From Betaproteobacteria bacterium (GTDB lineage Bacteria; Pseudomonadota; Gammaproteobacteria; Burkholderiales; SG8-41), in the NCBI GenBank assembly GCA_016202605.1, contig JACQOJ010000152.1:1350-65349 (forward strand): a stretch of DNA of 64,000 nt. The letters run 5' to 3'. How positions within the stretch are numbered: position 1 is the stretch's first letter; each line of letters opens with the position of its first letter. The notes beneath the pieces are model-generated. The model was given only the letters and a program-made list of their open reading frames with translations. It was not told where the DNA came from and ran no database searches. This document shows, piece by piece, positions 20,064 to 38,173 of the stretch. The position numbers were made by a program, and so were the translations under genes.

Positions 20064-20087
20064 CCTGCATTCGCGGCGCACGCCGTC

Positions 20088-20771
20088 CTAGAACAGGCTT
20101 GCCGCGCCGCAGTTGGTATTGCCGTTGGTGGCGTTCCAGGTCGCGGTGGCCGCAGTGCCGCTGGTGCAGTTGTTCGCGCCGTTATCCTGCGGCGCCGCCG
20201 CCGCGTTGCCTTGATACGACGAGAACTGGAATGCTCCCGTATTCGGCAATCCGTCGTCGATTTTCCGATCCACTTCGGCGATGATCTCGACCGGGATCTG
20301 GGCGCCCGTCTTCAGATTGTGCTTCGCCGCCGGCGTGCCCCCGCCGGGTCCGTACGCGCTGTCGTAGATCAGTTGCTGGTAGACCGCGTAAGGGTTCTTG
20401 GGATTCGAGGTATCGGCGGGGGTCGCATTGTAGGTGTAGGTGCCGGTGATGAATCCGGCTCGCGACAGATGCTCCCACACCAGGGTGTCCTCGCGCGGGG
20501 TGGTCGTGCTTTCGATGCGACCGTTGCCGTTTCCGTTCTGCGTGGCGCCGGCGATATTGGTCGTCGCCTGCGTGTAATCCCCCGGCAGGGACCGATAACG
20601 GTCGAGGAACCCGAAATAGGCCGCCTTGTAGCCGTCCTGCTGCGAAATAAGATTCCGCACGCGCGCGCTGGTGATGAGTTCCTGGCCTTTCAGCACGCCC
20701 CCGAGCAGCAGACCGATGATCACCAGCACGATCGCGATCTCGATCAAGGTAAACCCCTCTTGCCTGTTCAC
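20088..20771 (-). CDS. Type IVa-style prepilin, candidate major pilin of the adjacent filament system
   Basis: Leader (M)NRQEG / FTLIEIAIVLVIIGLLLGGVLKG, with Gly at -1 and Glu at +5. C-terminal Cys pair NNCTSG...NTNC. GTG 20771 is preceded by GGGGGA. The track's longer starts (20798, 20873) lack a Shine-Dalgarno sequence, and 20873 lies upstream of the sigma-54 promoter. Confidence 0.85.
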   Translation of the reverse strand: MNRQEGFTLIEIAIVLVIIGLLLGGVLKGQELITSARVRNLISQQDGYKAAYFGFLDRYRSLPGDYTQATTNIAGATQNGNGNGRIESTTTPREDTLVWEHLSRAGFITGTYTYNATPADTSNPKNPYAVYQQLIYDSAYGPGGGTPAAKHNLKTGAQIPVEIIAEVDRKIDDGLPNTGAFQFSSYQGNAAAAPQDNGANNCTSGTAATATWNATNGNTNCGAASLF

Positions 20772-20818
20772 GATTCCCCCTTTCGCGGTGGTTGGCATGG
20801 CGTAGCGGCAAAAACCGC

Positions 20819-20833
20819 GCAAGAAATATGCCA
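20819..20833 (-). promoter_or_regulatory. Sigma-54 (-24/-12) promoter of the major pilin gene
   Basis: Minus strand reads TGGCAT-ATTTC-TTGC, i.e. GG-N10-GC with exact spacing against the TGGCAC-N5-TTGC consensus. It lies about 48 nt upstream of GTG 20771. Confidence 0.75.
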
Positions 20834-21041
20834 TTGAGATATCCCGCCGCGCGCGTTTGTGCCGGACCTGCAAGCGAACACTGTAAAGACGACCGCGAGC
20901 CGGGCGTAGAGGTTCAATTTCCTGATTAATAGGAGAATTTCATCAGCGCATTCAAAAAAGCGCTTTTCGGGTCGTTGGGTGCATACCGCGGCGCGGATCG
21001 CCAAAGTCCGGGAAAACCCGCCGTGAAGACCGATGCAACCG

Positions 21042-21761
21042 TCAATTTTTCGACGGTAATGACGATTTTTCGCCGGCCTTCATGACTTCCAGCCGCTGCG
21101 TGAGGAATCGTATTTCGTTCGCATCGGTAATCTCCCCGCTCGCCAGCAGTCCACCGAGCAGGACGCTGGCACTCTCGAACTCGCCCGTCTCTTCGAGAAT
21201 GAAAATCCGCATCTGGCGCGCCCAGGAGGGTGCTTTTTGCGCGAGCCGCGCCAGGTCTCGCGCGTAGGCAAGCGCGAGCGCGGTGTCGTTGAGCCGGTGT
21301 TTCGCGACGATCACCGCATGCGCCAGCCAGCGCCAACGGCGGTCCGGGTCGTCCCGGAACCTGCGGTGCACGAAGTCCAGCATTTGCCGTTGCCGGGTCT
21401 CATCCGGCACCTGCGCATAGAGGTGGGAAGCCATCAGCAGCGGGTACCGGGTGTATGGATCGAGGTTGAGAATGGTATCGAGCCAGCTCACGACGCGCGG
21501 GTAATCCAGGTGGCGGAACGGGATGCTGATTCCGGGCTGATTATCGAATGCCTGCAGATAAAGCGTGAGCGCATATGCCGCGGCGATGGGTTCATCCAGG
21601 CTTGCCATTCTTGCCATGGCGGGGCGCGGCGGCACCGGCAGCGCCTCGGCGCGCGCCAGCGGCGAAGGACGCCCGGCTTCGGACGCGATTTGAACGATGA
21701 GCGCCGCGCCCAGCACGACGAGAACCGGCGCCGGGACGGCGCTTATGCGGCGTTCGGACAT
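21042..21761 (-). CDS. Hypothetical membrane-anchored helical protein, translationally coupled to the ABC-2 permease
   Basis: MSERRISAVPAPVLVVLGAALIVQIA anchor. Its ATG overlaps the upstream TGA (TGATG at 21759-21763). I recognise no family. The track fuses it into a 533-aa ORF that I split. Confidence 0.6.
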   Translation of the reverse strand: MSERRISAVPAPVLVVLGAALIVQIASEAGRPSPLARAEALPVPPRPAMARMASLDEPIAAAYALTLYLQAFDNQPGISIPFRHLDYPRVVSWLDTILNLDPYTRYPLLMASHLYAQVPDETRQRQMLDFVHRRFRDDPDRRWRWLAHAVIVAKHRLNDTALALAYARDLARLAQKAPSWARQMRIFILEETGEFESASVLLGGLLASGEITDANEIRFLTQRLEVMKAGEKSSLPSKN

Positions 21762-22537
21762 CAGAAATTCCTGCGATGGAAGTCGAACATGGTTGCGGCG
21801 GCGAGCAGGGTGATGTAAAGGATGCCGCTGGCGCACAGCGACCCGATGTCCGGCCAGCTCGCATGCTGATCGGCCACCCACGCGGTCCGGGTCCAGCGGT
21901 CGAAGGCGGGCACGATCAGTCCCAGGCCCTCCACGACGAACCGAATCACCTGGCGCGACGCGGCGTCTTCGCCGGTGAGCGGATGGGCGCTCATCAGGCG
22001 GATTGCCGTCAGGGTCCGCGCCAGCAGGTAAAATGCGAGGACGAAACTCGCCGCGGGCATGAGCTGATTGAAAGTCACGACGCAAAACAATGCGAACGCG
22101 ATCACGATGCCGAGCTCGAGCGCGAGTGAAATCCCCCACTGCAGCGCGGATTCCGGTGTTGCGAACCCCGCGAGCGGCAGGCTTGCGGCGGCGGCGACCA
22201 GAACGCCGATGATGAGAAAACCGGCGAGCTTGCCGAGGATATAATGGGCGCGCGGCACATCGAGTGCGAGCACCACATCGAGGCCCTTGTCGTTGAATTC
22301 GCGCATGACGCTCACGAGCACGTAGAGCCCGGCGATGAACACCGCGGCGAGCCGCATGCCGGAGGCATACATGCCGGCCCGAACGCGCGCGCTTTCCGTG
22401 ATCGCGATCTCTTGCGTGAAAAAGCCGGCGGCGACGAGAAACACGATCGCGGCGAGGACGAGTTCCGGCAGCCGCGTGCGGCGTGCTTCGAGCAGCGTAC
22501 AGCGGGCGATGGTTGTGATCTGACCGGTCATGGGCAT
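21761..22537 (-). CDS. ABC-2 type (NosY-like) transporter permease with no adjacent ATPase
   Basis: Six predicted TM segments. TLLEARRTRL and REFNDKGLDVVLALDVPRAHYILGKLAGF are typical of ABC-2 permeases. Confidence 0.65.
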   Translation of the reverse strand: MPMTGQITTIARCTLLEARRTRLPELVLAAIVFLVAAGFFTQEIAITESARVRAGMYASGMRLAAVFIAGLYVLVSVMREFNDKGLDVVLALDVPRAHYILGKLAGFLIIGVLVAAAASLPLAGFATPESALQWGISLALELGIVIAFALFCVVTFNQLMPAASFVLAFYLLARTLTAIRLMSAHPLTGEDAASRQVIRFVVEGLGLIVPAFDRWTRTAWVADQHASWPDIGSLCASGILYITLLAAATMFDFHRRNF

Positions 22538-22605
22538 GGGATGCGAATGCAGCGAGAGTATAACGAAAGTTCGGCGAACGCCGCGCCGGCGGAGGACGGA
22601 CCGGC

Positions 22606-24312
22606 GTGAACACGACCGCGGCCACCCCCCAGCAGCGTTTCATCGCCGCTTACCCGCAGTGGTGGATGGGATCGATGCTGCTCGCGCTGCATGCCGCGCT
22701 CGCCTGGGACATCCAGGAGTGGTGGGCGCGGGCCTTCCTGCTCGCGCATTTCGGCCTGTTCCTGCTGTGGCAGCCGGTGTGGCGTGGCGAGCGCGACGTC
22801 GAGCTCCGGCATGCGCTGCTGGTGGTGTTGGTGGGGGTGCTGCTCGTGGCGCTGAACAGCTGGTGGCTGATGGCAGTGTGGCTTGCCGTGCTGTTCGGCC
22901 TGATCGGCGGATCGGTCCCGGGAACCACCGATCGGCGGCAGCGGCTGGTGTCGATCCTGGCGGCGTTCTATCTGCTTTCCATTCTGCTCATGTGGGTGGT
23001 GCCGCAGCTTTTTGCGGAGCGCGTCCACGGCTGGGTCCAGGACATGGTGCGCTACGCGTTGCCCGTCATACCGTTCGGGATCGTTCTCATGCGTTTCGAG
23101 TCGCGGCGTTCGGCGGCGCCGGTCGCGGTGGACCTCTTCTACATCGTGCTCCTGTTCCTGCTGGTCGTGGCCTTGGTGCTTGGCAGCTTCGTCGTGAAGG
23201 AAGTCAGTCGCAGCGACTACCCGGTGGCGTTGGTTCAGACACTGTTCGTGATCGCGCTCGTGCTGGTCGCTTTGTCCTGGCTGTGGAATCCGCGCGGCGG
23301 CTTCACCGGCATCGGGCACCTGCTCTCGCGCTATCTGATGAGCCTCGGCCTCCCGTTCGAGCGCTGGGTGCAGCAGCTCGCGGAACTCGCCGAGGAGGAG
23401 TCGCAGCCCCCGCGCTTCCTGGCGTCGGCGCTGCAGCACATGCTCGAGTTGCCGTGGGTAAGCGGCGTGGAGTGGAAATCGCAGGTCGGGGAGGGCGAGT
23501 TCGGCGTCCGCACGGACCACGCTGCCGAATGCTCCACCCGCGATGTGGAGCTGAGAATTTTCACGCGGTGGCCGCTGACGCCGGCCTTGCTGCTGCACCT
23601 GAAGCTGCTCGCGCAAATGGTGGGGCATTTTTATGACGCCAAGCGGCGCGAGCAGATCCAGCGCCAGAGCGCTTACGCGCAGGCGATCTACGAAACCGGG
23701 GCGCGCCTCACCCACGACGTCAAGAATCTGCTGCAGTCGTTGCGCTCGCTGTGCGTTGCGGCCGAGACGAGCGGCGCCGATCAGGCAGCCGCGTTGCAGG
23801 CGTTGATGCAGCGGCAGTTGCCGCAGATCACCCGGCGGCTCAACACCACGCTCGACAAGCTCAGGAAGCCGCAGGACGTCGACGCGGGCGAGGTCGACGC
23901 GGCGATCTGGTGGGAGGGACTGGTCCAGCGCCACGACGGGCGCAACATCCGCTTCACCGCGGACGGCGTCGCGGCGAAGGCGCGCATCCCGTCGGAGCTT
24001 TTCGACAGCGCCGCCGACAACCTCATCGAGAACGCGCTCCGCAAGCAGACGGACGGCGAAGCGTTCGAAGTGCGCGTGACGTTTTCCGCGGCCCGCGGCG
24101 GCACGCTCACCGTGTGCGATAACGGCGCTGCCGTCGCCAGGAGCATCGTGGCGCAGTTGTTTGCGACGCCGGTGAGTTCCGGGACGGGACTGGGCATCGG
24201 CCTCTACCAGGCGGCGCGGCAGGCGGAGCGGTTCGGATACAGCCTTGCGCTCACCGCAAATGAGCCCGGGCGCGTGTGTTTCGCACTGACGCGGGCGGGG
24301 GAAGAATCCTAG
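22606..24312 (+). CDS. Multi-pass (about 8 TM) sensor histidine kinase, PilS/PrsK-like
   Basis: H-box ARLTHDVKNLLQSL, N-box DNLIENALRK, G-boxes DNGAAV and GTGLGIGLY. GTG start. Confidence 0.85.
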   Translation: MNTTAATPQQRFIAAYPQWWMGSMLLALHAALAWDIQEWWARAFLLAHFGLFLLWQPVWRGERDVELRHALLVVLVGVLLVALNSWWLMAVWLAVLFGLIGGSVPGTTDRRQRLVSILAAFYLLSILLMWVVPQLFAERVHGWVQDMVRYALPVIPFGIVLMRFESRRSAAPVAVDLFYIVLLFLLVVALVLGSFVVKEVSRSDYPVALVQTLFVIALVLVALSWLWNPRGGFTGIGHLLSRYLMSLGLPFERWVQQLAELAEEESQPPRFLASALQHMLELPWVSGVEWKSQVGEGEFGVRTDHAAECSTRDVELRIFTRWPLTPALLLHLKLLAQMVGHFYDAKRREQIQRQSAYAQAIYETGARLTHDVKNLLQSLRSLCVAAETSGADQAAALQALMQRQLPQITRRLNTTLDKLRKPQDVDAGEVDAAIWWEGLVQRHDGRNIRFTADGVAAKARIPSELFDSAADNLIENALRKQTDGEAFEVRVTFSAARGGTLTVCDNGAAVARSIVAQLFATPVSSGTGLGIGLYQAARQAERFGYSLALTANEPGRVCFALTRAGEES

Positions 24313-24430
24313 CCGGGAGGTCGTGAGATCGGAAGGTCGGGAAGTCGTGAGATCGGAAATTCGTGCGAGGTCCCACCTCGCTCTTCCGCGCTGACGCTCT
24401 TATGCTCTCACGTTCTCACGCCCTCGCGTG
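24313..24430. repeat. Intergenic 8-nt-period array pair (element R2) between the convergent kinase and pilin genes
   Basis: GTCGTGAG ATCGGAAG GTCGGGAA GTCGTGAG ATCGGAAA TTCGTGCG, facing CTCTCACG TTCTCACG CCCTCGCG. Confidence 0.7.
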
Positions 24431-24434
24431 CCTG

Positions 24435-25133
24435 TTAGGGCAGCCTGCCCGCCGCCACCATGCGATTGAGAAGAATATATTGCGACAGCGACGTCACGAT
24501 GTCGTCGAATTCCCCCGCGGACGATTCGGGCGCGGAGATGGCGCGGCTCACGACCTCCCGGTCGGCGTCGGTATTTTCGAGCTCATCGGCCCCGGTCGGG
24601 CTCGGATTCGTGGTGCCGGACAGACTGTTCGTCGCGCCGTAACCGTTCTTGCCGTGCGACACGATCACCGCGACCACGGCGGTGCCGGTCCCGCCGCAGT
24701 TCGCCGCTTGACATACCCGCACGTCGGTTCCGCCACCGCTCAGGTTGATCAGGGCGGCGGGCGGGCGCCAGGCGTAGCGTTCGTTCAGGACGTAACGGAA
24801 GCGGTTGCTCCATGCATCGGTGCCGGCGACACCCACAGTCGCCCACGGCAGGTTTCCGGTGGCGATGCCGCCTGCAACGGTACCGCACCGCCCGGTGCCG
24901 GCGTTCACGTCTTCGGCCCCGTCATCATTGGTGTCGGGGCAGGGCAGATATCCGTTCACGAGCGCGAACCCGACCAGGGCTTCCCTGATTTCGTCGAGTG
25001 TTTTCTGTGTATCGCTTATTTGCTTCTGCTCGACCTGGGTGGCAAGCGGAACCAGAATGCTGCCAAGCAGCAGGGTAATGATGAAGATCACCACTGCCAT
25101 TTCCACCAATGTGAAGCCGCTTGACCGTTTCAT
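24435..25133 (-). CDS. Prepilin-type N-terminal cleavage/methylation protein (minor pilin)
   Basis: MKRSSG / FTLVEMAVVIFIITLLLG. Internal LPCPD and GNLPWATVG motifs. C-terminal EFDDIVTSLSQYILLNRMVAAGRLP. Confidence 0.85.
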   Translation of the reverse strand: MKRSSGFTLVEMAVVIFIITLLLGSILVPLATQVEQKQISDTQKTLDEIREALVGFALVNGYLPCPDTNDDGAEDVNAGTGRCGTVAGGIATGNLPWATVGVAGTDAWSNRFRYVLNERYAWRPPAALINLSGGGTDVRVCQAANCGGTGTAVVAVIVSHGKNGYGATNSLSGTTNPSPTGADELENTDADREVVSRAISAPESSAGEFDDIVTSLSQYILLNRMVAAGRLP

Positions 25134-25143
25134 CGCAGCAGGC

Positions 25144-26373
25144 TCAGGGGGAGACGATCACGAGCCGGTCGTTGTTGGCGGGAGACAGCACCGGCTTGAC
25201 GAAAACGCCATCGCCGTTCGTGTTCTCCGGGTCCTCGAGACAGTCATCCGGTGTGGCGCATGGCCGTGACTGGCCCGGGAATGCGCGTCCCGTCACGATC
25301 ACTACCGCGCGCTTGTCGTCGTTCGGTACCGGCATACCCTGAACCGTGAGCAGGCCTCCGGCGCCGAAGCAACTTCCGAGCGAGTTCGGGTAACCGCATG
25401 CCGGCGCCATGGAATAGTGCGTCAGCCGGTGCCAGTTGTTGGCGGCAAACCAAGCCGGAGGCTGCGCCGGGCCCGGCGACTGCCAGTCCGCGAGCCCGGG
25501 GCATGTGGCGGATATGGGCTGGCCCAGCGGCACGCCGGGCTGGGGGATCCGCCCGCTCGTCAGGAGGGGCGTGCAGCCGTAACTGTTGTCGGAATAGCTG
25601 TTGGCGAACGGGTAGTAGCCGTTGATGTCGAAATACGCCGCGAGAAAAGCGCGAACCTCGCGCGCGACCCGCATTTCAACCACCGGGAACAACGCATCGC
25701 TCGTGACGGCGAGCAGCCGATCGTTGGCGCTGCCGCTGACCGCGCCGGCTGTGAAAGTGGTCGTGCCGGCAATTTCGTTGCCGCCTTCGAGATAGTGGGC
25801 AACCGTATTCTGGTTGGCGGCGTCCCGTGCCTGCGAGCCTGCCGCCCCGCCGGGCGCGAGCACAACGGCGATCACTCCGCTGAGGGTGGCGGAGCCGCTG
25901 TTGACGGTAAGCTCGCCGGCGGTATCGCTGTTGATCGGTTGCGCGGAATCGTCGTCCCGGAACGTCCGGGAGAGCGCATACCATAATCTTTCACCGCTGC
26001 TGTCGCGCAGATCCGGAAGACCGAGAGTGCGCCATGGCAGCCGGCCGATGTAGCTGGGGCACTCGTTTCCAACCAGGAGATCGGCGATGCCGTCGTTCGG
26101 AATGTTGGTTCCGGGGATATTTGTTACCAGGTCGGGACAGGGAAGGCTTCCGGGGCGATTCTGGTCGGCGGCGGCGCGGCCGATGAGCGCATCCTTCGCT
26201 TGCGCCAGCGCGGCAGCAGTCTTTTTCTCATTCTCGATGGTGAGGGAAGCCGGGCTGACCGTTGCGTAGATAAGAGCACCGGCGGCAATTCCGAGAATCG
26301 CGAGCATCGCCAGCAGCACCTGTCCGCGTTGAACGGACTGCCGGCGCCGTGGCTCAGCGCCGATCCTGCTCAT
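25144..26373 (-). CDS. Pilin-paralogue / GspK-like protein lacking a canonical prepilin cleavage site
   Basis: N-terminus RRRQSVQRGQVLLAMLAILGIAAG. It shares collinear motifs with the 24435-25133 pilin: LPCPD, G(R/N)LPW.T.G, R.(W/R)Y(A/V)L and ENT..D. ATG 26373 is preceded by GGGGA. Confidence 0.6.
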   Translation of the reverse strand: MSRIGAEPRRRQSVQRGQVLLAMLAILGIAAGALIYATVSPASLTIENEKKTAAALAQAKDALIGRAAADQNRPGSLPCPDLVTNIPGTNIPNDGIADLLVGNECPSYIGRLPWRTLGLPDLRDSSGERLWYALSRTFRDDDSAQPINSDTAGELTVNSGSATLSGVIAVVLAPGGAAGSQARDAANQNTVAHYLEGGNEIAGTTTFTAGAVSGSANDRLLAVTSDALFPVVEMRVAREVRAFLAAYFDINGYYPFANSYSDNSYGCTPLLTSGRIPQPGVPLGQPISATCPGLADWQSPGPAQPPAWFAANNWHRLTHYSMAPACGYPNSLGSCFGAGGLLTVQGMPVPNDDKRAVVIVTGRAFPGQSRPCATPDDCLEDPENTNGDGVFVKPVLSPANNDRLVIVSP

Positions 26374-26896
26374 GCTCGTCCCCGTCCCTGCGCGGACCCG
26401 AGGGGCCTGGCAACGTGCCATCTGCCCGGCCCTGTGCCGCGCGCTCGGGGCTCGCTGCCCTGGAGGCCGGTTGCGGGGCAGGCTCGCGGGCGTAGGGCTC
26501 GGCGATGCGTCCCGAGACGATCTCCACGCTTTGGCCGACTTTCAGATCGACGCTGCGGTTGGCCTGCGGCACGAGCAGGTTGATGCTGCCGTCAGGGCGT
26601 ACACGGCTCCTGACCGGCGACCCGGTGGCGCCTGTCCCGTCGTCCGTGGGCCGATCGTTGATCCACACCGTCGTCTTGCCGTCGCTGCGCCGTACCAGGC
26701 CGCCATACGTGACGACCTCCGGCGCCCGCGGCGCCTCCTCCGGTTCGGCCGCGAGAGGCGCGCGAAGCTTGTCGCCGCGGGCGGCGTCGAGTTGCGCGCG
26801 TTGCGCGGGCGTAAAAAAGAGCCGGCCGAGCGGCTCCGCGCCGCACGCATCGCCGATCGCCAGGACAAGCCCGAGCAACGGCAGAACGCACCTCAC
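26354..26896 (-). CDS. Small secreted protein, PilP/MshK-like by position
   Basis: GTG start overlaps the upstream stop (GTGA 26893-26896). Signal peptide VRCVLPLLGLVLAIGDACGA, then LFFTPAQRAQLD. The assignment rests on position only. Confidence 0.4.
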   Translation of the reverse strand: MRCVLPLLGLVLAIGDACGAEPLGRLFFTPAQRAQLDAARGDKLRAPLAAEPEEAPRAPEVVTYGGLVRRSDGKTTVWINDRPTDDGTGATGSPVRSRVRPDGSINLLVPQANRSVDLKVGQSVEIVSGRIAEPYAREPAPQPASRAASPERAAQGRADGTLPGPSGPRRDGDEHEQDRR

Positions 26897-29057: not shown

Positions 29058-29060
29058 TCG

Positions 29061-30269: not shown

Positions 30270-30277
30270 GGGGCGCT

Positions 30278-30363: not shown

Positions 30364-32060
30364 TAGCGTCCGGTCAAATCCACCTCGCGCGATACCTCGG
30401 CAAGGCTGGTGGTGCCGTCGGCCACCCGCCGCAGGCCCTCTCTCGCCAGCGTCCGGAATTCCTTGGCCATGGAGGCGGCTCGCAGTTCCTTGACCGTCGC
30501 GCGGCGCGCGACCAGTTCGTCCAGATCGCTGTCCATGATGAGCAGTTCCATGATCGCCGCCCGGCCCTTGTACCCCTTGTTTTCGCATTGCTTGCAGCCG
30601 ACCGGGCGGTAGAGGTACGAGACCGACTCCGCGACCTGCCCCAGCAGCAGGCGCTCCTCCGGGGACGGCGCGTAAGCCTCCTTGCAATGCGCGCAGAGCA
30701 CGCGCACGAGACGCTGCGCGATGACGCCGATGATGTTGCCCGCCATGATATCGGGCTGGATGCCGATGTCGAGCAACCGCGGGAAGGCGCCAAGGGCGGA
30801 GTTGGTGTGCAGGGTGGTGAAGACCTGGTGACCGGTCATCGCCGCGCGGAACGCCATTTCGGCGGTTTCCTTGTCGCGCACTTCGCCCACGAGAATGATG
30901 TCGGGATCCTGGCGCATGATCGAACGAATGCCGTTCGCGAAATCCATCCGCGCCACTTCGTTGACCGAGGTCTGGCGCATGAGCGTCAGGGGATACTCGA
31001 CGGGATCCTCGAGCGTCATGATGTTGACGGTTTCGTCGTTGACCTCCGCGAGCAGCGAATAGAGGGTGGTGGTCTTGCCGCTGCCGGTGGGACCCGTCAC
31101 GATGAGGATACCTTCCGGGCGCGCGAGCATGAGCTTGAGCTTCGCCAGCGTGTCCGCGGAGAGGTTCATGCGGTCGAGGCTGATGATCGATTTTTCGCGA
31201 TCGAGCACCCGCAAAACGACGTTCTCGCCGTAGATCGTGGGCTGGGTCGAGACCCGGAAGTCCACCTGGCGCCCGGAGAGCGTCAACGACAGCCGCCCAT
31301 CCTGCGGGGCACGGGTTTCCGCGATGTTCATGTCGCTCACGACCTTGAGCCGGACAGTGATGCCGGGCATGTAGCTTTTGTGCAGGCTGCGCACGGTTTC
31401 CAGCACGCCGTCGATGCGGTAACGAATGCGCATGAACGCATACTCGGGCTCGAAATGGATATCGGAGGCCCCGCGCTTGACCGCATCCACCAGCAGCGCG
31501 TTGACGAGCCGCACCATGGGCTGCGTGTATTCGTCGCCGCCGGCCTGCAGGCTCTCGTAATCGATCTCGCCGGTCTCGATCTCGTGCAGAATGCCGTCCA
31601 CCGAGAGTTCGTAGCCGTAGAACTGGTCGATATAGTTCTCGAGCTGGGCTTCGCTCGCGAACTGGGGCTTGACCTCCATCTGTCCGCCCAGCATCGCGCG
31701 CAACTGGTCCATGACCACGACGTTGAAAATTTCCGCGGTCGCAATGGTCAGAACGCGCTCGACCGGCTCGTAGGCGATCGGCAGGATGCGATTGCGGCGG
31801 GCGAATTCCTGGGGCACCATCTTCAGCGCTTCGGAGTCGGCCACGACCTGAGAGAGGTCGATCGACTCCTGGCCGATCGTGCGCGCCATGATGTCGCGGA
31901 TCGCGGTCTCGGTGACGAACCCGAGCCTCACCAGCAGGCGCCCGATCGGAACGTTGCTGTGGCGCTGCTCGGCGAGCGCGATCGCCAGCTGATCGGTGGT
32001 AATCAACCCTTGCTGTACCAGCAGATCGCCGAGTCTGAATTTCTTGCGCTGTTCAGCCAC
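30357..32060 (-). CDS. GspE/PilB-family secretion ATPase with MshEN-type N-terminal domain (MshE-like)
   Basis: N-terminal RLGDLLVQQGLITTDQLAIALAEQ, Walker A GPTGSGKTTT, Walker B ILVGEVRD, tetracysteine CAHC...CKQC. Confidence 0.93.
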   Translation of the reverse strand: MAEQRKKFRLGDLLVQQGLITTDQLAIALAEQRHSNVPIGRLLVRLGFVTETAIRDIMARTIGQESIDLSQVVADSEALKMVPQEFARRNRILPIAYEPVERVLTIATAEIFNVVVMDQLRAMLGGQMEVKPQFASEAQLENYIDQFYGYELSVDGILHEIETGEIDYESLQAGGDEYTQPMVRLVNALLVDAVKRGASDIHFEPEYAFMRIRYRIDGVLETVRSLHKSYMPGITVRLKVVSDMNIAETRAPQDGRLSLTLSGRQVDFRVSTQPTIYGENVVLRVLDREKSIISLDRMNLSADTLAKLKLMLARPEGILIVTGPTGSGKTTTLYSLLAEVNDETVNIMTLEDPVEYPLTLMRQTSVNEVARMDFANGIRSIMRQDPDIILVGEVRDKETAEMAFRAAMTGHQVFTTLHTNSALGAFPRLLDIGIQPDIMAGNIIGVIAQRLVRVLCAHCKEAYAPSPEERLLLGQVAESVSYLYRPVGCKQCENKGYKGRAAIMELLIMDSDLDELVARRATVKELRAASMAKEFRTLAREGLRRVADGTTSLAEVSREVDLTGRYD

Positions 32061-32076
32061 GCTTCACCTTGGCCAC

Positions 32077-33294
32077 CTATTCCGATTGCGCGGCGAGTTT
32101 GCCGATGCGTTCCCGGGCCAGGGCGGAGTTGAAGTTGGCATGTCCCCGGGCTGAGGCCAGTTCCACGGCCCGGCGATAAAAATCAAGGGCGAGCCGCGGC
32201 TGGTCCAGGTGCTCGAGCCCGACCGCCAGGTTGTAGGCATAGTCGGGATTAGCCGCATCCCGATGGTGCGCCTGGAAATAGGCCTGCTGCGCCTGCGCCC
32301 AGAGAGACTGGTCCGCATAGAGATTGCCCAACGTGAAGTAGAGGAAAGCGGAGGGTTCCCGCGCGATGATCTGTTTCAGACGCGTCTCCGCGGCGAGCGG
32401 ATCGGCGCGCCCCATCAGACCGATCAGGCCCGACTGGGCCAGCGCGTGGCGGGGATCGAGTTCGAGGATGGCGAGATAATGCTTCGTGGCATCCCCGGTC
32501 CTGCCTTCCTGCGTGGCAATCGCGGCAAGTCCGAGCAGAGCGTCAACGTTCTGCGGCTCGACGCGCACGAGCTGGCCGTACAGCTCGCGGGCAGCATCCA
32601 GGCGGCCCGCCTGGAGCGCGGCGTACGCTTCCGCGAGCGGTGCGCTGATCGCCGGTGCCGCGCTGCCGCGGCTCACGACGATGGTGTTGCGGGGTGCTGC
32701 CGCTTCCGCCTTCTGCGGAACCGGTGCGGCGGCCGGCCTGGGCGCGGGCGCCGGGATGGTTGCAGGAGGAGCGGTCGGGCGCGACGACGGCTCCGGAATG
32801 CTCGATTCCAGCAAAGTGGAGGCGGGAATCGGCGGCACCACTGTCGCGGGAGGGGGTGGCGCCGGGGTAGGTGCCTGGACGAGAGACGAGGGTTGCCCGG
32901 CTCCGGGTGACGGAGTGATGAAGAGGGCGGGATGGTAAATCTGCAGGTAGACGTAGATTCCGAAACCGGCGGCGAACAGTGCCGCGCAAACGCTGACCAC
33001 GACCAGCGGGCGGGCACGCACGAACGCGGTGACACCCCCGCCTCCTGCCTGCATCGAGGTTGCAGCCCGTTTTTGTTCGCGCAATGGTGGTGCGGCGGAA
33101 GCGCGGGGTCCGCCACCGGGCCCGGACGGGGACTCATCCTTCAGCCGCGGGGAGGGCGTGTCCGCCGCCAGCAGCTCGAGCGCGAGCGAGAGCTCGGGTC
33201 GCGGTTCGGTGACGGTCGCGGGCGAGCCCTGATCCGTTCGTGCTTCGCCCCGGTCTTTCGCGGCCTTTTCCAAGGCCTTCATGAGCAGACTCAT
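32077..33294 (-). CDS. TPR-repeat protein with TM anchor and Pro/Ala-rich linker (MshN-like)
   Basis: MSLLMKALEKAAKD N-terminus, TM VVVSVCAALFAAGFGIYVYL, C-terminal TPR repeats. ATGA overlap with the secretin stop (33291-33294). Confidence 0.65.
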   Translation of the reverse strand: MSLLMKALEKAAKDRGEARTDQGSPATVTEPRPELSLALELLAADTPSPRLKDESPSGPGGGPRASAAPPLREQKRAATSMQAGGGGVTAFVRARPLVVVSVCAALFAAGFGIYVYLQIYHPALFITPSPGAGQPSSLVQAPTPAPPPPATVVPPIPASTLLESSIPEPSSRPTAPPATIPAPAPRPAAAPVPQKAEAAAPRNTIVVSRGSAAPAISAPLAEAYAALQAGRLDAARELYGQLVRVEPQNVDALLGLAAIATQEGRTGDATKHYLAILELDPRHALAQSGLIGLMGRADPLAAETRLKQIIAREPSAFLYFTLGNLYADQSLWAQAQQAYFQAHHRDAANPDYAYNLAVGLEHLDQPRLALDFYRRAVELASARGHANFNSALARERIGKLAAQSE

Positions 33295-35234
33295 TGCGCA
33301 GCGCCGGTTTTCTCTGCGGGTGAATTCCCGGTCTGAGGCAGGTAGCGCTGGAAAAACTTGAGTTCGTCGCTCGCCAGCGATGGATTGGAGATCACCGTCG
33401 TGCGCAGGAAGATGACCAACTCGTTTTTCGTGGCTCTCTCGTCGCGGAACGCAAACGCCTCGCCGACTTGCGGCTGGCTTCCCGCGACCGGGACTTGGTC
33501 GCGATCGCGCCTGGTTTCGTTCTGCATGAGTCCGCCGAGGATGACCGTCTGGCCGCTGCCGACCTGCAGCACGGACTCCATTTCGCGGATCTGGATCTCC
33601 GGGACCGGATTCTGAATCTGCTGGCCGCCGACGACCAGGCTGGGATTGGGATCGTTCACGAAGCGCAGGACCCGCGAGATCGTCGGCCGCACCGTGAGCG
33701 ACACGCGGCCATCGTCGTTGATCTGGGGCGTGACGCCCATCACCACCCCGACCGACACGAACTTGGGTGTGCTGTTGAACGTGGTGGTCGCCACTCCCTG
33801 CGTGGTGTTGGTCTGCGCCTGCAGCTCGAAATACACCACGTTGTCCACGACCTTGAGCAGCGCTGTCTGGTTGTTGAGCGCCATCAGCTTGGGACTCGAC
33901 AGCACGCGCGTCTGGCCAAATTGTTCGAGCAGCTTGATGGTCAGGCTGATATCGCCCGTGCGCTGGTTGTTCTGGTTGAAGAACAGGGCGAAGAACGGCG
34001 CGGTGGCGAGATTGCTTCCCAGCAACGCCTGGCTGAAGGCGATGCCGCCGCTCGTGGAGATCCGGCTCCAGTCGACCCCGCCCTGATAGGCCTGCGAGAG
34101 CTGGACTTCGACGATGGTCGCTTCGATCAGCACCTGGCGCTGCGCGGCCGCCGTGATGCTGTCCAGGTGCTGCTGGACGAGGTTGTGCTGGCGCTCGGTG
34201 GCGATGACGCTGACGGTACCGCTCACCGGATTGACGATCACGTCATCCCGCGCATCCGGCGCCTGGGATGCGGGCGTGCCGCGGAAGGCCGCGGCGAAAA
34301 GCGTCGTCGCGCCCTGGCCGGCGCGCGCCACCGCTTCGGCCTGCTTCAACGCGGTGTCCCGTGCCGCGCGCTGTTCCTCCGCGATCTTCGCCTTTTCTTC
34401 CGCAGTGAGGCTGCTCGCGCGCGTCGAAGCGAGTATCGCGCGAATGTTTTCGCGCAATTGTTCCCAGAAGTTGTTGTTGGACACCGTGCGCACGACGGTG
34501 CTCGAACCCCCGGCGGTTCCCGGCGTGCCGCCGGATCTCCCCGCGGCGGCGCCGGCCGCGCCGCCGCCGGCCGCCGTGAGTTCACCCGATACCCCGATCG
34601 TTGAGGTCGTATCGCGCGTCATGTTCACGTAATTGACGCGGTAAGTGCGCAGGTGCGGCGTGTCGGGAGATACGACGATGGTGTTGCCTTCGATGCGGTA
34701 GCGCATGTTGACCTGCCTGGCGATGCGATCGAGGATCGCCGGCAGCGTTTCATTGATGGCGTTGAGGCTTACCAGCCCCCGCAGGCCGGAATGGATGTCG
34801 ATGTTCTGCTTCGTGTCCCGCGCGAGCGCCAGCAACAACTCCTTCACCGGTACTTCGTTGACGACGACGCTGTAAGTTTGCGGCTTCACGGCCGGTCTGG
34901 GTGGCGGCACGAAGGTCGTCACCCGGGCCGGCGGGGGAATCGCTCTTTCAGGTTCCGGCTTCACCGGCGGTGCGGCGATGTGGCCCTCGGATGGGGGAAC
35001 GTCGGGGCGGATGTTGGCGCAACCCGCAAGCATGAACATGAGGAACAGGCCGCAGGCAACGGCAGGATTCCTCCCGTCGGGCGCGAGCGAAAGCGAGGTG
35101 AATTCAGGCAACGCTGGAGATACTGTGCACGACGGTGCGCGACCAGCCGCAAACTCTGCTTGCATTGTCATCCCCCGCTCAACCGCCAACACGCACGATT
35201 CAGCAATTCGTTCCTGCCGTCGCGCTTCGATCAA
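33291..35234 (-). CDS. Secretin (GspD/PilQ/MshL family); start codon uncertain
   Basis: C-terminal secretin domain: VLIEATIVEV, SSPKLMALNNQTALLKV, TVILGGL, IFLRTTVI. The lipobox FMLAG/C is at residue 72 of the longest ORF. Confidence 0.88.
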   Translation of the reverse strand: MIEARRQERIAESCVLAVERGMTMQAEFAAGRAPSCTVSPALPEFTSLSLAPDGRNPAVACGLFLMFMLAGCANIRPDVPPSEGHIAAPPVKPEPERAIPPPARVTTFVPPPRPAVKPQTYSVVVNEVPVKELLLALARDTKQNIDIHSGLRGLVSLNAINETLPAILDRIARQVNMRYRIEGNTIVVSPDTPHLRTYRVNYVNMTRDTTSTIGVSGELTAAGGGAAGAAAGRSGGTPGTAGGSSTVVRTVSNNNFWEQLRENIRAILASTRASSLTAEEKAKIAEEQRAARDTALKQAEAVARAGQGATTLFAAAFRGTPASQAPDARDDVIVNPVSGTVSVIATERQHNLVQQHLDSITAAAQRQVLIEATIVEVQLSQAYQGGVDWSRISTSGGIAFSQALLGSNLATAPFFALFFNQNNQRTGDISLTIKLLEQFGQTRVLSSPKLMALNNQTALLKVVDNVVYFELQAQTNTTQGVATTTFNSTPKFVSVGVVMGVTPQINDDGRVSLTVRPTISRVLRFVNDPNPSLVVGGQQIQNPVPEIQIREMESVLQVGSGQTVILGGLMQNETRRDRDQVPVAGSQPQVGEAFAFRDERATKNELVIFLRTTVISNPSLASDELKFFQRYLPQTGNSPAEKTGAAQ

Positions 35235-36682
35235 GAGCGCTGATGCCGCTCGATCTCCGTGCGAATTCCGCGAACGGTGCGCAGGATCGGCCGATTCGCC
35301 TTGAGCGCCGGCGGCAACTTCTCGAGCGCGTCCTGCGCCGCGCGGCGGTCGCTGAAGCTGCCGTACAAAACCGTCAGCGACGCCTTGCGATTAGCTACCG
35401 TACGATACAAAAAAACCCCATTTATTTCAATGAATTTTGCGATGTCGTTGAGATGGCGTGTGAGCTGCTCCTCGCTGTCCGCGCCGAGCAGCTGAATACT
35501 GTAGGTCGTCTCTTCGGCGTCTGCCAGCCATGCGCGGGTTGCGGCGAGACGTTGCCCGACAAGACCGGACTCGGTGCCCGGCTGGACGAGCGCGGGCGCA
35601 GCCGTGCTCGCCGCCGGGCTTGCGGGTATCGCCGTCTCCGTGCCGCCCGCGTCCAGGCCGCCGGCATGGGCTCGCGTCGGGATCGGGGTGGTCATGGCGG
35701 CAGGTGCTGCGCGTCCCGCGCTCGGCGCGGGGGACTGCGCCTCGGCGCCGCCCTGCGCATCACCCCTGCCGCTATGGCTGATCAGGGCATAAATGACCGC
35801 GCCGATCGCCGCGCCCGCCAGCACGAGCGCCGCTGCCCATGGAAACCGTGATCGTACCGCGAATCGCCGGTCCTGGCTGAATTCACTGTCACGCACCGCC
35901 GCTTTGATGTGCCGTGGCCTGATGTTGTGGGTGTTTTCCGAAAAAGCCGCCAGCAGCGCCTTGTCCGCGATCACATTGACGCGGCGCGTGAGCCCGTTCG
36001 ACGCGCGCGCGACGAGCTTCACGACCGCAGAGGAGAACAGGTCCGGCCCGCGGTAGCCGGCCGCCCGCATGCGGAACATCAGGTATTCGCGTATCTCTTC
36101 CGCGGTGAGCGGTTCGAGCCGGAAGCTGTGAGTGATGCGCTCCCGCAACTGGCGAATGTTGGGCCGCCGCAGATTCTCATCGAGTTCGGGCTGACCGAAA
36201 AGCACGATCTGCAGCAGCTTGTCGTCGCGCGTTTCGAGGTTGGACAGCAGCCGGATTTCCTCGAGAGTCGCCAGCGGCATGCTCTGCGACTCCTCGACGA
36301 ACACCACCACCCTTTTGCCTTCGGCGTGGCGTTTGAGCAGATAGTCCTGCAGCAGGTGCATGATCTCGAGCCGGGGCGCCGTGCGCTCGATGCCGAGCTG
36401 CAGCTCGAAGGCGATCGCGTGCAGGATTTCCTCGGGCGCGACGCTGGGATGCGGGAGGTAGACCGTCTCGATACGCGGGGGCAGCCGGGTCTGCAGCATG
36501 TTGCACAGCATGGTCTTGCCGCTGCCGACTTCGCCGGTGACCTTGACGATGCCCTCACCGCTGGTCACCGCGTAGATCAGCGCCTCCAGAATCGGGCCGC
36601 GATTGCCGCCGCTGAAAAAGAACTCGGTGTTGGGCGTAATCTTGAACGGCGCCTGGTTCAGTCCGAAATGACTGTAATACAT
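35231..36682 (-). CDS. ExeA/MshM-family AAA ATPase fused to a TM segment and a C-terminal SPOR-like domain
   Basis: MYYSHFGLNQAPFKITPNTEFFF, Walker A GEVGSGKT, Walker B VVVFVEESQ. TM AAALVLAGAAIGAVIYALI, an Ala/Pro-rich linker, then YSIQLLGADSEEQLTRHL...LYGSFSDRRAAQDAL. Confidence 0.8.
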   Translation of the reverse strand: MYYSHFGLNQAPFKITPNTEFFFSGGNRGPILEALIYAVTSGEGIVKVTGEVGSGKTMLCNMLQTRLPPRIETVYLPHPSVAPEEILHAIAFELQLGIERTAPRLEIMHLLQDYLLKRHAEGKRVVVFVEESQSMPLATLEEIRLLSNLETRDDKLLQIVLFGQPELDENLRRPNIRQLRERITHSFRLEPLTAEEIREYLMFRMRAAGYRGPDLFSSAVVKLVARASNGLTRRVNVIADKALLAAFSENTHNIRPRHIKAAVRDSEFSQDRRFAVRSRFPWAAALVLAGAAIGAVIYALISHSGRGDAQGGAEAQSPAPSAGRAAPAAMTTPIPTRAHAGGLDAGGTETAIPASPAASTAAPALVQPGTESGLVGQRLAATRAWLADAEETTYSIQLLGADSEEQLTRHLNDIAKFIEINGVFLYRTVANRKASLTVLYGSFSDRRAAQDALEKLPPALKANRPILRTVRGIRTEIERHQRS

Positions 36683-36721
36683 ATTCCCTCGCGGTCATGC
36701 CCTATGGCCGGATGATCACCG

Positions 36722-38173
36722 TCATTTTGCGGAAGGATGCGGCGCCCCGGGCCCGCCTTCGTTCGCGTAGTTCTGCATCCGGCTGTAGAGCGTGGTGCGG
36801 TGGATGCCGAGCAGCCTGGCCGCCTGCGTGAGGTTGCCCTGCGTGATCGTGAGCGCCGCCTCGACGTAGCTGCGCTCCCATTGCCGGAGGATGTGGTCGA
36901 GATTGAAATTCTTCTGAACCTGCAGTTGACGGCGGGCGGCATCGAGCAGCGCCTTGAAGTCCTGGCCGGCCGGCAGCCCGGGCAGGTCGATCTCCATGCT
37001 CTCCATGTCCAGCTCGGACTGCAGTTGCGCCGCAGTGACCTTCTGCCCCGCGTGCTTCGTGGTGAGCCGGATGATGATGTTGCGCAATTCGCGCACGTTG
37101 CCCGGAAAACTGTAGTCGAGCCACAGGTCCATCGCGTTGCGGTCGAGGTCGAACGCATCGACGTGCGCCTGCTGCGCGTAGAACTCCCGATAGTGATCGA
37201 GCAGCAGGCATTTGTCGTCGCCGAGGTCGCGCAGCGCCGGCACGCCGATGGTGAAGACCGACAGCCGGTGGTAGAGATCGGCGCGGAAGCGGCTGGCCCG
37301 GATTTCGGCGCGCATGTCGCGGTTGGTCGCGGCGATCACCCGCGCATTGGACACGCGGCTCTGGGTTTCGCCGACGCGCTGGAACTCGCCGTTTTCCAGC
37401 ACGCGCAGCAGCTTCGCCTGCAGCTCGAGCGGCAGCTCGCCGATTTCGTCCAGGAACAGCGTCGAGTCCTTGGCGTCCTCGAAATAACCCGAGCGCGCGG
37501 CAGTCGCCCCCGTGAACGCGCCCTTGGCATATCCAAAGAGCGTGGGCTCGACGAGCGTGGGGGAAATGGCGGCGCAGTTGAGCGCGAGGAACGGCCGTGC
37601 CGCGCGATGGCTCATTCGATGCAGCGATTTCGCCACCAGCTCCTTGCCGCTGCCCGACTCACCCTCGATCAGCACCGGAAACGGGGCATCGGCGAACTGG
37701 CCGATCTGCTGCCGCAGCTTCTCGACGAGCAGGCTTCTGCCGAGCAGTCCTCCGTCGGGTGCGGCGCCGAGTTCCGCGTCGCGGATCTCGAGCGCGCGCT
37801 GCAGGAGCTCCTTCAACGTCTCCGGCTCGCACGGCTTGGCGACGAACTCGATGGCGCCAAGCGTGCGCGCGTGGCGCGCGTTGGTTTCGTCGCTTTGCCC
37901 GGAAAGCACGACGATCTTGATGCCGGGCGAGTAGGCGATGAGTTCGCTGATCAGGCGGAAGCCCTCGTCCGGCCGGTGGGGTGTCGGCGGCAATCCGAGA
38001 TCGATCAGCGCGAGCTGGGGCGGGCGATCGAGCTGGCGCAGCAGGCTCTTGACTTGCGCCCGCGACTCCGCCACGTAGACCATGAAGTCCCGGCCCAATA
38101 CGAAATTCAGCGTGTCGGTAATCAGCGGGTCGTCGTCGACGATCAGCAGCTCGGGCTTGAGCTTCTCTGCCAC
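36722..38173 (-). CDS. Sigma-54-dependent (NtrC-family) response regulator, PilR/PrsR-like
   Basis: REC domain ([10 protein letters not shown]), AAA+ [17 protein letters not shown] motif (KGAFTGAT), C-terminal Fis-type [26 protein letters not shown] start. Confidence 0.92.

Follow-up and report, generated by a model that had tools for sequence, protein, structure and literature searches.

In the current study, we analysed a 64,000-nucleotide stretch of DNA from a Betaproteobacteria bacterium (assembly GCA_016202605.1, contig JACQOJ010000152.1, positions 1,350 to 65,349 of the forward strand), hereafter called the window. At window positions 20088-38987 we identified a locus that we regard, with a probability of about 0.7, as a real and complete gene cluster for an envelope-spanning type IV filament machine belonging to a family related to, but distinct from, the mannose-sensitive haemagglutinin (MSHA) pilus. 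Twelve co-directional minus-strand genes, running from 38987 down to 24435, together with a convergent histidine kinase gene (eight transmembrane, or TM, segments) and a three-gene unit ending in a prepilin, make up one conserved locus. A preliminary description of this DNA, made from the letters alone, had proposed a distinct and uncharacterised variant, and the proposal has held: no characterised member was found, and in a phylogeny of limited size the motor ATPase does not fall squarely within a well-studied clade that has the same gene order and regulators. The locus is best classed as a new variant, uncharacterised but widespread, that is related to the MSH class and has no studied member.

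The G+C content of the window is ca. 65%, which produces many spurious open reading frames (ORFs), and the phase of third-position GC (GC3) was therefore used to choose between gene models. All 13 genes of the preliminary description lie where it had placed them and show coding-type GC3 periodicity. The same signal revealed two further minus-strand genes between the kinase and the distal pilin (21761-22537 and 21042-21761, joined by a TGATG stop/start overlap), and the co-directional run was found to extend upstream past the response regulator to an ABC (ATP-binding cassette) transporter ATPase. ORF 38253-39833 ("ABC526") was rejected as a gene model, since its GC3 phase shifts at ca. 39000 and orthologue matches cover residues ca. 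276-526 only; its real part is the last ca. 245 codons (38253-38987), with ATG 38987 as the likely start. ORF 21042-22643 was rejected on the same grounds of GC3 phase and orthologue coverage. The domain calls were confirmed (REC, Sigma54_activat and HTH_8 in the regulator; AAA_22 and SPOR; Secretin; TPR; MshEN and T2SSE; T2SSF; two N_methyl prepilins; and HATPase_c). The features are as follows, a slash marking the cleavage point in leader sequences.

38253-38987, minus strand: ABC transporter ATPase of the DrrA/NodI/GldA type, first gene of the run (NCBIfam drrA 150 bits, GldA 112 bits).
36722-38173, minus strand: NtrC-family sigma-54 activator and response regulator (Pfam Response_reg, Sigma54_activat 215 bits, HTH_8).
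35231-36682, minus strand: MshM/ExeA-like AAA ATPase with one TM segment and a periplasmic SPOR domain (Pfam AAA_22 97 bits; SPOR 23 bits, above cut-off).
33291-35165, minus strand: MshL-type outer-membrane secretin (Pfam Secretin; NCBIfam pilus_MshL, TIGR02519).
32077-33294, minus strand: bitopic TPR protein in the MshN position (Pfam TPR families; TM segment at ca. 90-116).
30357-32060, minus strand: filament-assembly ATPase with an N-terminal MshEN domain, of the cyclic di-GMP (c-di-GMP) receptor type (Pfam T2SSE 423 bits; MshEN).
29061-30269, minus strand: inner-membrane platform of the GspF/PilC/MshG type (Pfam T2SSF 162 bits, two repeats).
27498-29057, minus strand: fusion protein in the MshI/MshI2 position, with an actin-like cytoplasmic domain (PilM/GspL-type), a long helix and, at the C-terminus, an alpha-beta domain (AlphaFold2 model and Foldseek).
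26893-27501, minus strand: bitopic protein in the PilO/GspM/MshJ position (position and an N-terminal TM segment at ca. 12-30; ATGA overlap with the upstream gene).
26354-26896, minus strand: small exported protein in the MshK/PilP position (signal peptide, with an N-terminal hydrophobic segment; GTGA overlap).
25144-26373, minus strand: large pilin-like protein (QRG/Q..., no Glu5) with a Cys-rich globular domain (AlphaFold2 model; Gly17 nearly invariant).
24435-25133, minus strand: prepilin MKRSSG/FTLVEM..., last gene of the long operon (Pfam N_methyl and motif scan).
22606-24312, plus strand: histidine kinase with ca. 8 TM segments (Pfam HATPase_c; H-box THDVKNL in the translation).
21761-22537, minus strand: ABC-2-type permease with 6 TM segments, divergent from the kinase (ABC2_membrane_3 E 2.4e-6, 27.3 bits, below the cut-off of 31.6).
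21042-21761, minus strand: bitopic protein of no known family, with one N-terminal TM segment (1-nt TGATG overlap with the permease).
20818-20833, minus strand: sigma-54 (-24/-12) promoter TGGCATATTTCTTGCG for the distal prepilin (TGGCAT-N5-TTGC; phylogenetic footprinting).
20088-20771, minus strand: distal prepilin MNRQEG/FTLIEI..., with its own promoter (Pfam N_methyl; GTG start).

The relationship to the MSH class was gauged against an Aeromonas caviae chromosome (filed as a plasmid, and found by tblastn of the window ATPase against a plasmid collection), in which the match lies inside a textbook mshH-I-I2-J-K-L-M-N-E-G-F-B-A-C-D-O-P-Q array; Legionella adelaidensis provided a second locus, in the canonical I-J-K-L-M-N-E order. 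The secretin scores 242.9 bits on the pilus_MshL model (TIGR02519), just below the cut-off of 250.2, compared with 133 bits for GspD and 110 bits for PilQ; Aeromonas MshL itself reaches 279 bits on TIGR02519. It is 29% identical to Aeromonas MshL (E 4e-34), mshL is the sole place in the A. caviae genome that it matches at E<=1e-10, and its best-scoring matches among the plasmid-collection records are the genes annotated mshL in Legionella and Aeromonas. The protein is probably a lipoprotein (LAG/C). The AAA ATPase is 43% identical to Aeromonas MshM over 270 residues (E 5e-76), has its TM segment at ca. 283-301 and, like Aeromonas MshM, finds TIGR03015 as its top NCBIfam match. The platform is 29% identical to Aeromonas MshG (E 2e-59), and the likeness of the TPR protein to Aeromonas MshN is weak (blastp E 0.002, profile E 2.6e-4). 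The secretin, the ExeA/MshM-like ATPase, the TPR protein and the platform are the four proteins of the locus that match the MSHA class. In one distant relative of the locus (L081, 1300-3193), the MshM-like ATPase and its SPOR part are encoded by two genes of 344 and 273 residues, although the near-identical L082 has a single 629-residue gene at 1296-3185; the L081 arrangement may reflect a true division of the gene, or else a frameshift or a difference between the assemblies.

The motor ATPase also carries features of MshE. It contains the NCBIfam c-di-GMP motif NF053729 (64.9 bits, cut-off 38), its scores on the GspE and PilB models (519 and 509 bits) both fall under the cut-offs, as do those of Aeromonas MshE, and its best listed place in the A. 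caviae genome is mshE, with 39.7% identity between the proteins. The MshEN domain of such ATPases consists of two tandem 24-residue motifs, RLGxx(L/V/I)(L/V/I)xxG(L/V/I)(L/V/I)xxxxLxxxLxxQ, set 5 residues apart (Wang et al. 2016, PMC5013675). Motif I of the window protein (R9...Q32; RLGxxLVxxGLIxxxxLxxxLxxQ) is a perfect match and is kept in 69 orthologues. We also built a bootstrapped neighbour-joining tree from 15 sequences, namely the window ATPase, six distant members of its family, Aeromonas and Legionella MshE, three GspE and three PilB-type proteins. In this tree the window family forms a clade of its own (94% bootstrap, 60-68% internal identity), distinct both from MshE (100%) and from GspE, whose group has moderate support (68%). 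The protein, initially labelled an MshE-type ATPase, does carry an MshEN domain but does not group with canonical MshE in this limited tree.

To follow the locus in other genomes, we used the PilM/N-like fusion protein as a marker; at E<=1e-3, a library reduced to 50% identity yielded 1,937 representative clusters, and 259 GTDB species genomes contained a match. Our statements on genome loci cover the best 80 of these 259. Seventy-nine of the 80 are labelled as metagenome-assembled genomes (MAGs), the remaining one (L019) lacks the MAG label but is a bin-named isolate, and all are betaproteobacterial by content. A number of these records (L012, L015, L026, L028, L055, L057 and others) are titled as MAGs of "uncultured Streptomycetaceae", "Bordetella parapertussis" or "Chitinophaga pinensis" despite a proteobacterial, syntenic locus, and the taxonomic labels of those records look unreliable. 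In all 80, as far as the contig reaches, the order is ABC ATPase, response regulator, M, L, N, E, G, fusion, PilO-position protein, small protein, large pilin-like protein, pilin, kinase (opposite strand), permease, partner and pilin. Distant loci were sampled as well: L081/L082, L083, L084, L085 (located on a contig of 5.7 Mb), L087 (Desulfobulbaceae) and L088 (Gammaproteobacteria). All of them retain the core order, across a range of G+C (57% in L081, 51% in L083 and 40% in L084), so that the survey of gene order called for at the outset found it retained both in the 80 loci and in the distant ones. Members of the family come from MAGs of Burkholderiales, Gammaproteobacteria and Desulfobulbaceae, recovered from soil, groundwater and sediment. 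No characterised member and no named cultured species was recognised among the best 80 of the 259 loci, the seven distant loci are metagenome-derived, every named member that we found is annotated as "hypothetical protein" only, and we found no paper in the literature on this architecture.

The strongest new point to come from this comparison is that an exporter belongs to the system. ABC ATPases of the DrrA/NodI/GldA type partner ABC-2 permeases, and at this locus the two make up, with the bitopic partner protein, a three-gene module. The window ABC ATPase is 60% identical to the homologue that borders the locus in L083, and is better conserved than the scaffold proteins; ABC ATPases border the locus in L081, L085, L087 and L088 also. 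Permease orthologues bearing ABC2_membrane_2/3 marks are found in L081, L083, L087 and L088 (34-40% identity to those of L081 and L083). The partner (21042-21761), for which the profile libraries gave no family match, is 43-47% identical in L081 and L083, and thus better conserved than the PilMN-like protein. Altogether, ATPase, permease and partner are present in six of the seven sampled lineages, the ATPase being at the regulator end or after the distal pilin, and this conservation across distant lineages argues that the exporter is part of the system. On this evidence the ABC-2 exporter appears to be an integral part of the locus that was overlooked in the first reading, whose phrase "minimal gene set" was misleading: the conserved unit is larger and includes the three-gene exporter module.

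The locus also carries its own control genes. The regulator has the layout REC, AAA+ and Fis-type helix-turn-helix, its translation contains GAFTGA, and it is kept beside the locus in Burkholderiales MAGs and in L081, L085 and L088. The kinase gene is convergent with the operon and encodes eight hydrophobic peaks within residues 20-223; it occupies the same position and orientation in the listed loci that reach that far and in L081, L085 and L088, and shows no HisKA or PAS domain recognisable by Pfam. Presumably it is the partner of the regulator, and a dedicated NtrC-type two-component pair does, as had been proposed, accompany the locus. In L085 (18771-20081) a gene with a guanylate cyclase domain (Guanylate_cyc), running in the opposite direction, separates the ABC-2 partner gene from the distal pilin, and hints at cyclic-nucleotide input in that lineage.

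The promoter of the distal prepilin gene, TGGCATATTTCTTGCG (20833-20818), is followed by a GGGGGA Shine-Dalgarno sequence and then by the GTG start at 20771, which opens the leader MNRQEG/FTLIE. Sigma-54 patterns are not enriched across the window (21 matches, against 27.5 expected from shuffles). It is conservation, not pattern frequency, that backs this site: of 44 orthologous pilin genes, 35 have a GG-N10-GC element between -53 and -74, the background being 0.14 motifs per kb on each strand, and no other site in the window has such backing. The original call of a second prepilin with a sigma-54 promoter therefore stands. A TGGCAC in the 79-nt gap before the regulator gene was rejected as a sigma-54 site, as it has no -12 GC. 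The element is present in L081, L085 and L088, all of which have a receiver-containing NtrC regulator, and hence in every sampled lineage with a full regulator of this type; it was not found in L083 or L087, both of which lack a sigma-54 activator, nor in L084, where the activator has no receiver and there is no separate distal pilin. Many orthologues have an AT-rich box resembling a binding site for integration host factor (IHF) upstream of the element. In many promoters of orthologous pilin genes, the interval from the IHF-like box to the -24 element contains an inverted repeat GTGA-N6-8-TCAC (e.g., gtgatatatttcac), located ca. 45-60 nt upstream of -24 in L024, L025, L036, L037, L040, L046, L050, L076 and L079; it is a candidate binding site for the regulator, and the window itself holds no clear copy. 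A conserved lptA-lptB-rpoN-hpf-ptsN-hprK block occupies window positions 11017-15754, ca. 5 kb from the pilus locus, and with rpoN at 12808-14247 the sigma factor needed by the pilin promoter is encoded close by. The element, a nearby GAFTGA-bearing bacterial enhancer-binding protein and rpoN are accordingly all present; activation of the pilin gene is a prediction from these.

The proteins at the I, J and K positions are far more elusive. In the AlphaFold2 model of the fusion protein (predicted local distance difference test, pLDDT, 72; predicted template-modelling score, pTM, 0.55), an N-terminal alpha/beta domain is followed by a very long helix (293-357) and then by a C-terminal alpha-beta domain. 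Foldseek placed Pseudomonas aeruginosa PilM at the top of its matches (E 4.6e-7, probability 1.0), with the PilM proteins of Myxococcus xanthus and Thermus, further actin-like ATPases and the cytoplasmic domain of PulL after it. Searches of Pfam, NCBIfam and PDB sequences with the protein gave no match, and a profile of the PilMN-like family against PDB sequences gave chance matches only. The PilM/N reading that had been offered for this protein is therefore supported at the level of the predicted fold, and not by sequence; GspL shares the same architecture. The PilO-position protein (26893-27501) is kept at the same place in all loci, and its PilO-like label derives from position and topology only; neither MshJ nor the PilN-like half of the fusion resembled it by hhalign or hmmsearch, and no family matched. 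The small protein is kept in most of the listed loci long enough to hold it (57 orthologues were recovered) and in L081 and L083, with no match in L084 and no family matches. Indeed, 27498-29057, 26893-27501, 26354-26896 and 25144-26373 gave no family match even at E<=10.

The window contains two GFTLIE-type prepilins and one pilin-like protein, so that the original count of three pilin-like genes is unchanged. The distal prepilin is proposed to be the major filament subunit, and the prepilin at 24435-25133 is probably a minor pilin; their resemblance to MshA, or to any known pilin, is confined to the N-terminal helix. A GC-rich hairpin, GCCCGCCGCGCGCGGGCTTTTTT, with a T-run lies downstream of the distal prepilin gene, within 20027-20087. 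The large pilin-like protein gave a confident AlphaFold2 model (pLDDT 87.5, pTM 0.83) with a long N-terminal helix (15-69), which in a Foldseek search of solved structures (PDB) matched none (best E 1.3). It had been taken for a GspK-like paralogue, an identity that we reject, the model showing no fold match to GspK and the sequence no family match. Several of its Cys residues are conserved, its length ranges from 325 to 1006 residues in the distant loci, and we propose that it is a tip or priming subunit. The distal pilin gene is tandemly duplicated two or three times in L017, L024, L037 and L076, usually with a sigma-54 promoter at the first copy only, and extra copies of the minor pilin or the large pilin-like protein occur in L027, L033, L039, L041 and L045. 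The pilin set is the variable part of the system.

A number of observations weigh against the interpretation of the locus as an MSHA-related filament machine with its own exporter and control. The motor ATPase is 35-40% identical to MshE, GspE and PilB alike, and the deep nodes of the tree, at 12-22%, are too low to order these groups; with this equidistance, the MSH affiliation of the locus rests on the secretin, MshM, MshN and context, and that of the motor is only putative. The second MshEN motif (P38...T61) fits a relaxed pattern only, without the strict Arg and Gln, and c-di-GMP binding may thus be weak or lost. In this motif Pro, Ile, Met and Thr replace the canonical Arg, Leu, Leu and Gln and are kept in 61-66 of the 69 orthologues (51 for the Ile), which suggests a family-specific mode of ligand binding rather than decay; control of the motor by c-di-GMP is plausible but uncertain. 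The I/J/K-position proteins have no similarity to Aeromonas MshI, MshI2, MshJ or MshK by blastp, hmmsearch or hhalign, and the PilO-position and small proteins are assigned by position alone. As a control, Aeromonas MshI2 and MshJ are recognised by Pfam PilN and PilO/T2SSM, and their window counterparts are not. The housekeeping genes that flank the locus are also syntenic in Burkholderiales MAGs, so that conservation there is in itself no proof of functional linkage; it was on this account that loci whose marker is only 28-31% identical were sampled. One of these, L084, lacks the ABC module, and the role that may be inferred for the exporter, in pilin handling or filament biogenesis, comes by analogy with Myxococcus PilGHI, a likeness of context alone. 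Finally, every step of the mechanism set out below is inference, the host being uncultured.

How far the composition is that of the MSH class bears on what we consider to be the best-surviving, although unlikely, alternative, namely that this is an ordinary MSHA pilus locus with a shuffled gene order, working exactly as in Vibrio or Aeromonas. The published model of the class makes mshA, E, G, L and M mandatory (Denise et al. 2019, PMC6668835), and the locus has counterparts for all five. For mshL and mshM these are the secretin (242.9 bits against a cut-off of 250.2) and the 43%-identical MshM; for mshG and mshA they are the T2SSF platform, 29% identical to MshG, and the prepilins, with their MshA likeness in the N-terminal helix only; and for mshE it is the ATPase with its MshEN domain and c-di-GMP motif, whose best place in Aeromonas is mshE and which forms a separate clade in the small 15-sequence tree. 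The accessory genes mshI, I2, J and K were not recognisable by profile and, being accessory in the model, are not needed for membership. The NCBIfam score pattern is Aeromonas-like, and a separate major pilin is, like the lack of a prepilin peptidase, a norm of the class (PMC6668835). Against an ordinary MSHA locus stand the separate 94% clade of an ATPase that is no closer to MshE (39%) than to GspE (37-40%); the failure of the window proteins to match anything at E<=10 where Aeromonas MshI2 and MshJ match Pfam PilN and PilO; the lack of counterparts of MshH, F, B, C, D, O, P and Q; and the two-component pair, sigma-54 promoter and ABC-2 module, none of which is present in the 22-25 kb of sequence surrounding the msh loci of Aeromonas and Legionella. 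In addition, a guilt-by-association screen of the known classes found no extra genes systematically linked to them (PMC6668835). The initial assignment of an MSHA-class composition holds for the secretin, MshM, TPR protein, platform and MshEN domain; it is uncertain for the motor, whose clade is separate in the limited tree, and the scaffold, fused and highly divergent, is not recognisable by sequence.

A variant of the machinery for type II secretion (T2SS), in which a short pseudopilus would push folded substrates through the secretin and the fusion, its neighbour and the ExeA-like ATPase would correspond to GspL, GspM and GspA, respectively, seems to us slightly more doubtful still. Like GspL, the fusion does run from an actin-like domain through a TM helix to a periplasmic alpha-beta domain, and the PulL cytoplasmic domain is among its fold matches. 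ExeA-type ATPases are T2SS accessories; the motor scores as high on the GspE model as on that of PilB, and is 39.8% identical to Comamonas GspE; and the pilin genes are few, one of them large and without Glu5, as in GspK. However, the secretin favours MshL over GspD (243 versus 133 bits, the GspD cut-off being 351) and in Aeromonas matches mshL only at E<=1e-10. The models of GspC and GspK gave no matches, that of GspG gave only 20-33 bits (cut-off 89), confined to the N-terminal helix, and the large pilin-like protein has no fold match to GspK. A separately transcribed pilin of 221 mature residues with a strong sigma-54 promoter, tandemly duplicated in some MAGs, also suits a surface pilin better. 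A PEP-CTERM/exosortase (XrtA) exopolysaccharide system, suggested by the top NCBIfam matches of the regulator (TIGR02915, PrsR, 354 bits), the AAA ATPase (TIGR03015, pepcterm ATPase, 208 bits) and the TPR protein (TIGR02917, PrsT, 44 bits), is highly improbable, given that all three lie far below their cut-offs (503, 325 and 312 bits), that Aeromonas MshM and MshN have the same top matches, which therefore reflect superfamily relatedness only, that the kinase does not match the PrsK model, and that no exosortase or PEP-CTERM protein was found among the locus genes or the neighbouring ORFs scanned.

If the locus does encode an MSHA-related filament machine of a distinct family, it might work as follows. 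The kinase would sense a membrane or envelope signal and phosphorylate the regulator, which would activate sigma-54 RNA polymerase at the -24/-12 promoter and so switch on the major pilin. A prepilin peptidase encoded elsewhere would cleave the leaders after Gly, and the ATPase would drive the platform to polymerise the pilin, perhaps with c-di-GMP adjusting the ATPase activity by way of the MshEN motif, whose first half is intact. The large pilin-like protein and the minor pilin may prime the filament, which would leave through the secretin; the SPOR-bearing ATPase and the TPR protein may help to assemble or anchor that secretin in peptidoglycan, as ExeA does for ExeD. The ABC-2 exporter would be needed for pilin handling or filament biogenesis, if the analogy with Myxococcus PilGHI applies. 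The machine probably serves surface attachment or the formation of biofilms by Proteobacteria of soil and groundwater, with a T2SS-like role in secretion as the alternative.

Type IV filaments have a central part in bacterial attachment, DNA uptake and secretion and in the formation of biofilms, and their experimentally known classes come from a few cultured Proteobacteria and Firmicutes. To judge from the present locus, a different motor clade, a PilM/N-type scaffold in fused form and a pilin without structural match can go together with an MSH-type core (secretin, MshM and MshN), and such a locus can have a two-component/sigma-54 switch and an ABC-2 exporter hard-wired into it. If the exporter should prove necessary, the poorly understood requirement for PilGHI in Myxococcus would be generalised beyond type IVa pili. 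A bolder reading, which we offer tentatively as possible rather than probable, is that this is the founding example of an unrecognised, widespread sub-class of type IV filaments, with its own motor clade, an alignment complex and tip pilin without sequence relatives (the tip pilin also being without a match among solved structures), an obligatory ABC-2 exporter and two-component/sigma-54 control, the exporter doing something new, such as membrane handling or modification of the pilin or co-export of a matrix polymer. For annotation, the locus offers anchor families for at least six unnamed protein families. The locus is a reasonable target for study in view of how large the family is, of its conserved exporter and of the lack of studied members.

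Some details of gene structure and surroundings deserve mention. The 4-nt strings at the four overlaps claimed in the preliminary description do read TTGA, ATGA, ATGA and GTGA on the minus strand, and the last three can be retained. The TTGA at 35231-35234 is probably not a real coupling: conservation among secretin orthologues starts near residue 59 of the longest ORF, and ATG 35165, preceded by a GGGGGA Shine-Dalgarno sequence, is probably the start, rather than TTG 35234 (uncertain range, 35234-35111). The 87-nt spacer between the ATPase and platform genes (30270-30356) contains a run of TCATTCATC-like repeats, and the 122-nt convergent spacer between the minor pilin and kinase genes (24313-24434) contains two direct copies of TCCGATCTCACGAC(T/C)TCCCG together with complementary CGTGAGA motifs; these repeats may be a candidate bidirectional terminator or binding site. 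Rfam gave no riboswitch or other RNA within the locus, and scans for sigma-70 promoters and terminators gave nothing assignable above background. Between the locus and mlaFE lie genes for an AurF-like di-iron N-oxygenase (39024-39908, plus strand), an NAD-dependent epimerase/dehydratase-like protein (39924-40811, minus strand) and a luciferase-like (LLM/F420-type) oxidoreductase (40868-41944, minus strand), a trio (39024-41944) that may perhaps be a small tailoring cluster. Elsewhere in the window, 2276-3694 encodes a 472-residue multihaem c-type cytochrome, which matches Cytochrome_cB, Cytochrome_C7 and MtrC/MtrF-like families and adjoins a tRNA gene (2126-2196).

Comparison with known systems places these features in context. 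ExeA aids the assembly of the ExeD secretin in peptidoglycan. Like ExeA/ExeB (GspA/GspB), the present locus has, beside the secretin gene, a gene for a cytoplasmic AAA ATPase with one TM segment and a periplasmic peptidoglycan-binding domain, but here that domain is SPOR rather than PG_binding_1, no ExeB/GspB was recognised, and the secretin is MshL-type. With the PilG-PilH-PilI proteins of Myxococcus xanthus, which are required for pilus biogenesis (PMC3724824; PMC6060248), it shares an ABC transporter beside a pilin gene in a pilus cluster; this is a likeness of context only, and at the window locus the ATPase and permease pair lie at opposite ends.

PilS-PilR and sigma-54 control the major pilin gene in type IVa pili (P. 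aeruginosa, M. xanthus and Geobacter). At the present locus, too, a multi-pass kinase and a REC-AAA+-Fis activator are encoded next to pilus genes, a pilin that is transcribed separately has a -24/-12 promoter directly upstream and, in many orthologues, an IHF-like AT-rich box lies further upstream. Unlike in those systems, the machine under control here is MSH-related rather than a type IVa pilus, and the kinase has ca. 8 TM segments and neither HisKA nor PAS. The pilRS genes are also present in the Myxococcus clusters (PMC6060248).

The closest comparison is with MSHA itself (Vibrio cholerae, and the Aeromonas Bfp/MSHA array mshHIJKLMNEGFBACDOPQ), with which the locus has in common an MshL-type secretin, an MshM-type AAA ATPase, a TPR protein resembling MshN, an MshEN ATPase, a GspF platform and short G/FTLIE leaders. 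On the NCBIfam models, Aeromonas E, L, M and N behave as the window proteins do, with PilB and GspE about equal and below cut-off, MshL as the best secretin model, and TIGR03015 and PrsT at the top. Neither has a peptidase or retraction ATPase in the locus. That such genes are missing had been noted from the start, and we found no A24 peptidase among those multi-pass membrane proteins of the window that were tested, short of a scan of every ORF, and no second T2SSE ATPase. It is not a distinguishing feature, however, as all MSH loci are without a prepilin peptidase (PMC6668835) and Vibrio MSHA uses PilT (PMC9815625). As had been pointed out, the order M-L-N-E-G-(I/J/K) differs from the canonical I-J-K-L-M-N-E-G of Aeromonas and Legionella, although the proteins given as I, J and K lack similarity to MshI, I2, J and K. 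The PilM-like and PilN-like parts are fused in the window, its MshM carries a TM segment and SPOR, there are three pilin-like genes rather than about seven, and MshH and MshF have no counterpart. To this the window adds the NtrC-type regulator, the 8-TM kinase, the sigma-54 pilin promoter and the ABC-2 module. MSH is reported to have been described only in Gammaproteobacteria, to which the survey in PMC6668835 adds Chrysiogenetes and Epsilonproteobacteria. What sets the present locus apart from MSHA is therefore not a missing peptidase or PilT but its betaproteobacterial distribution, its hard-wired two-component/sigma-54 control and its ABC module.

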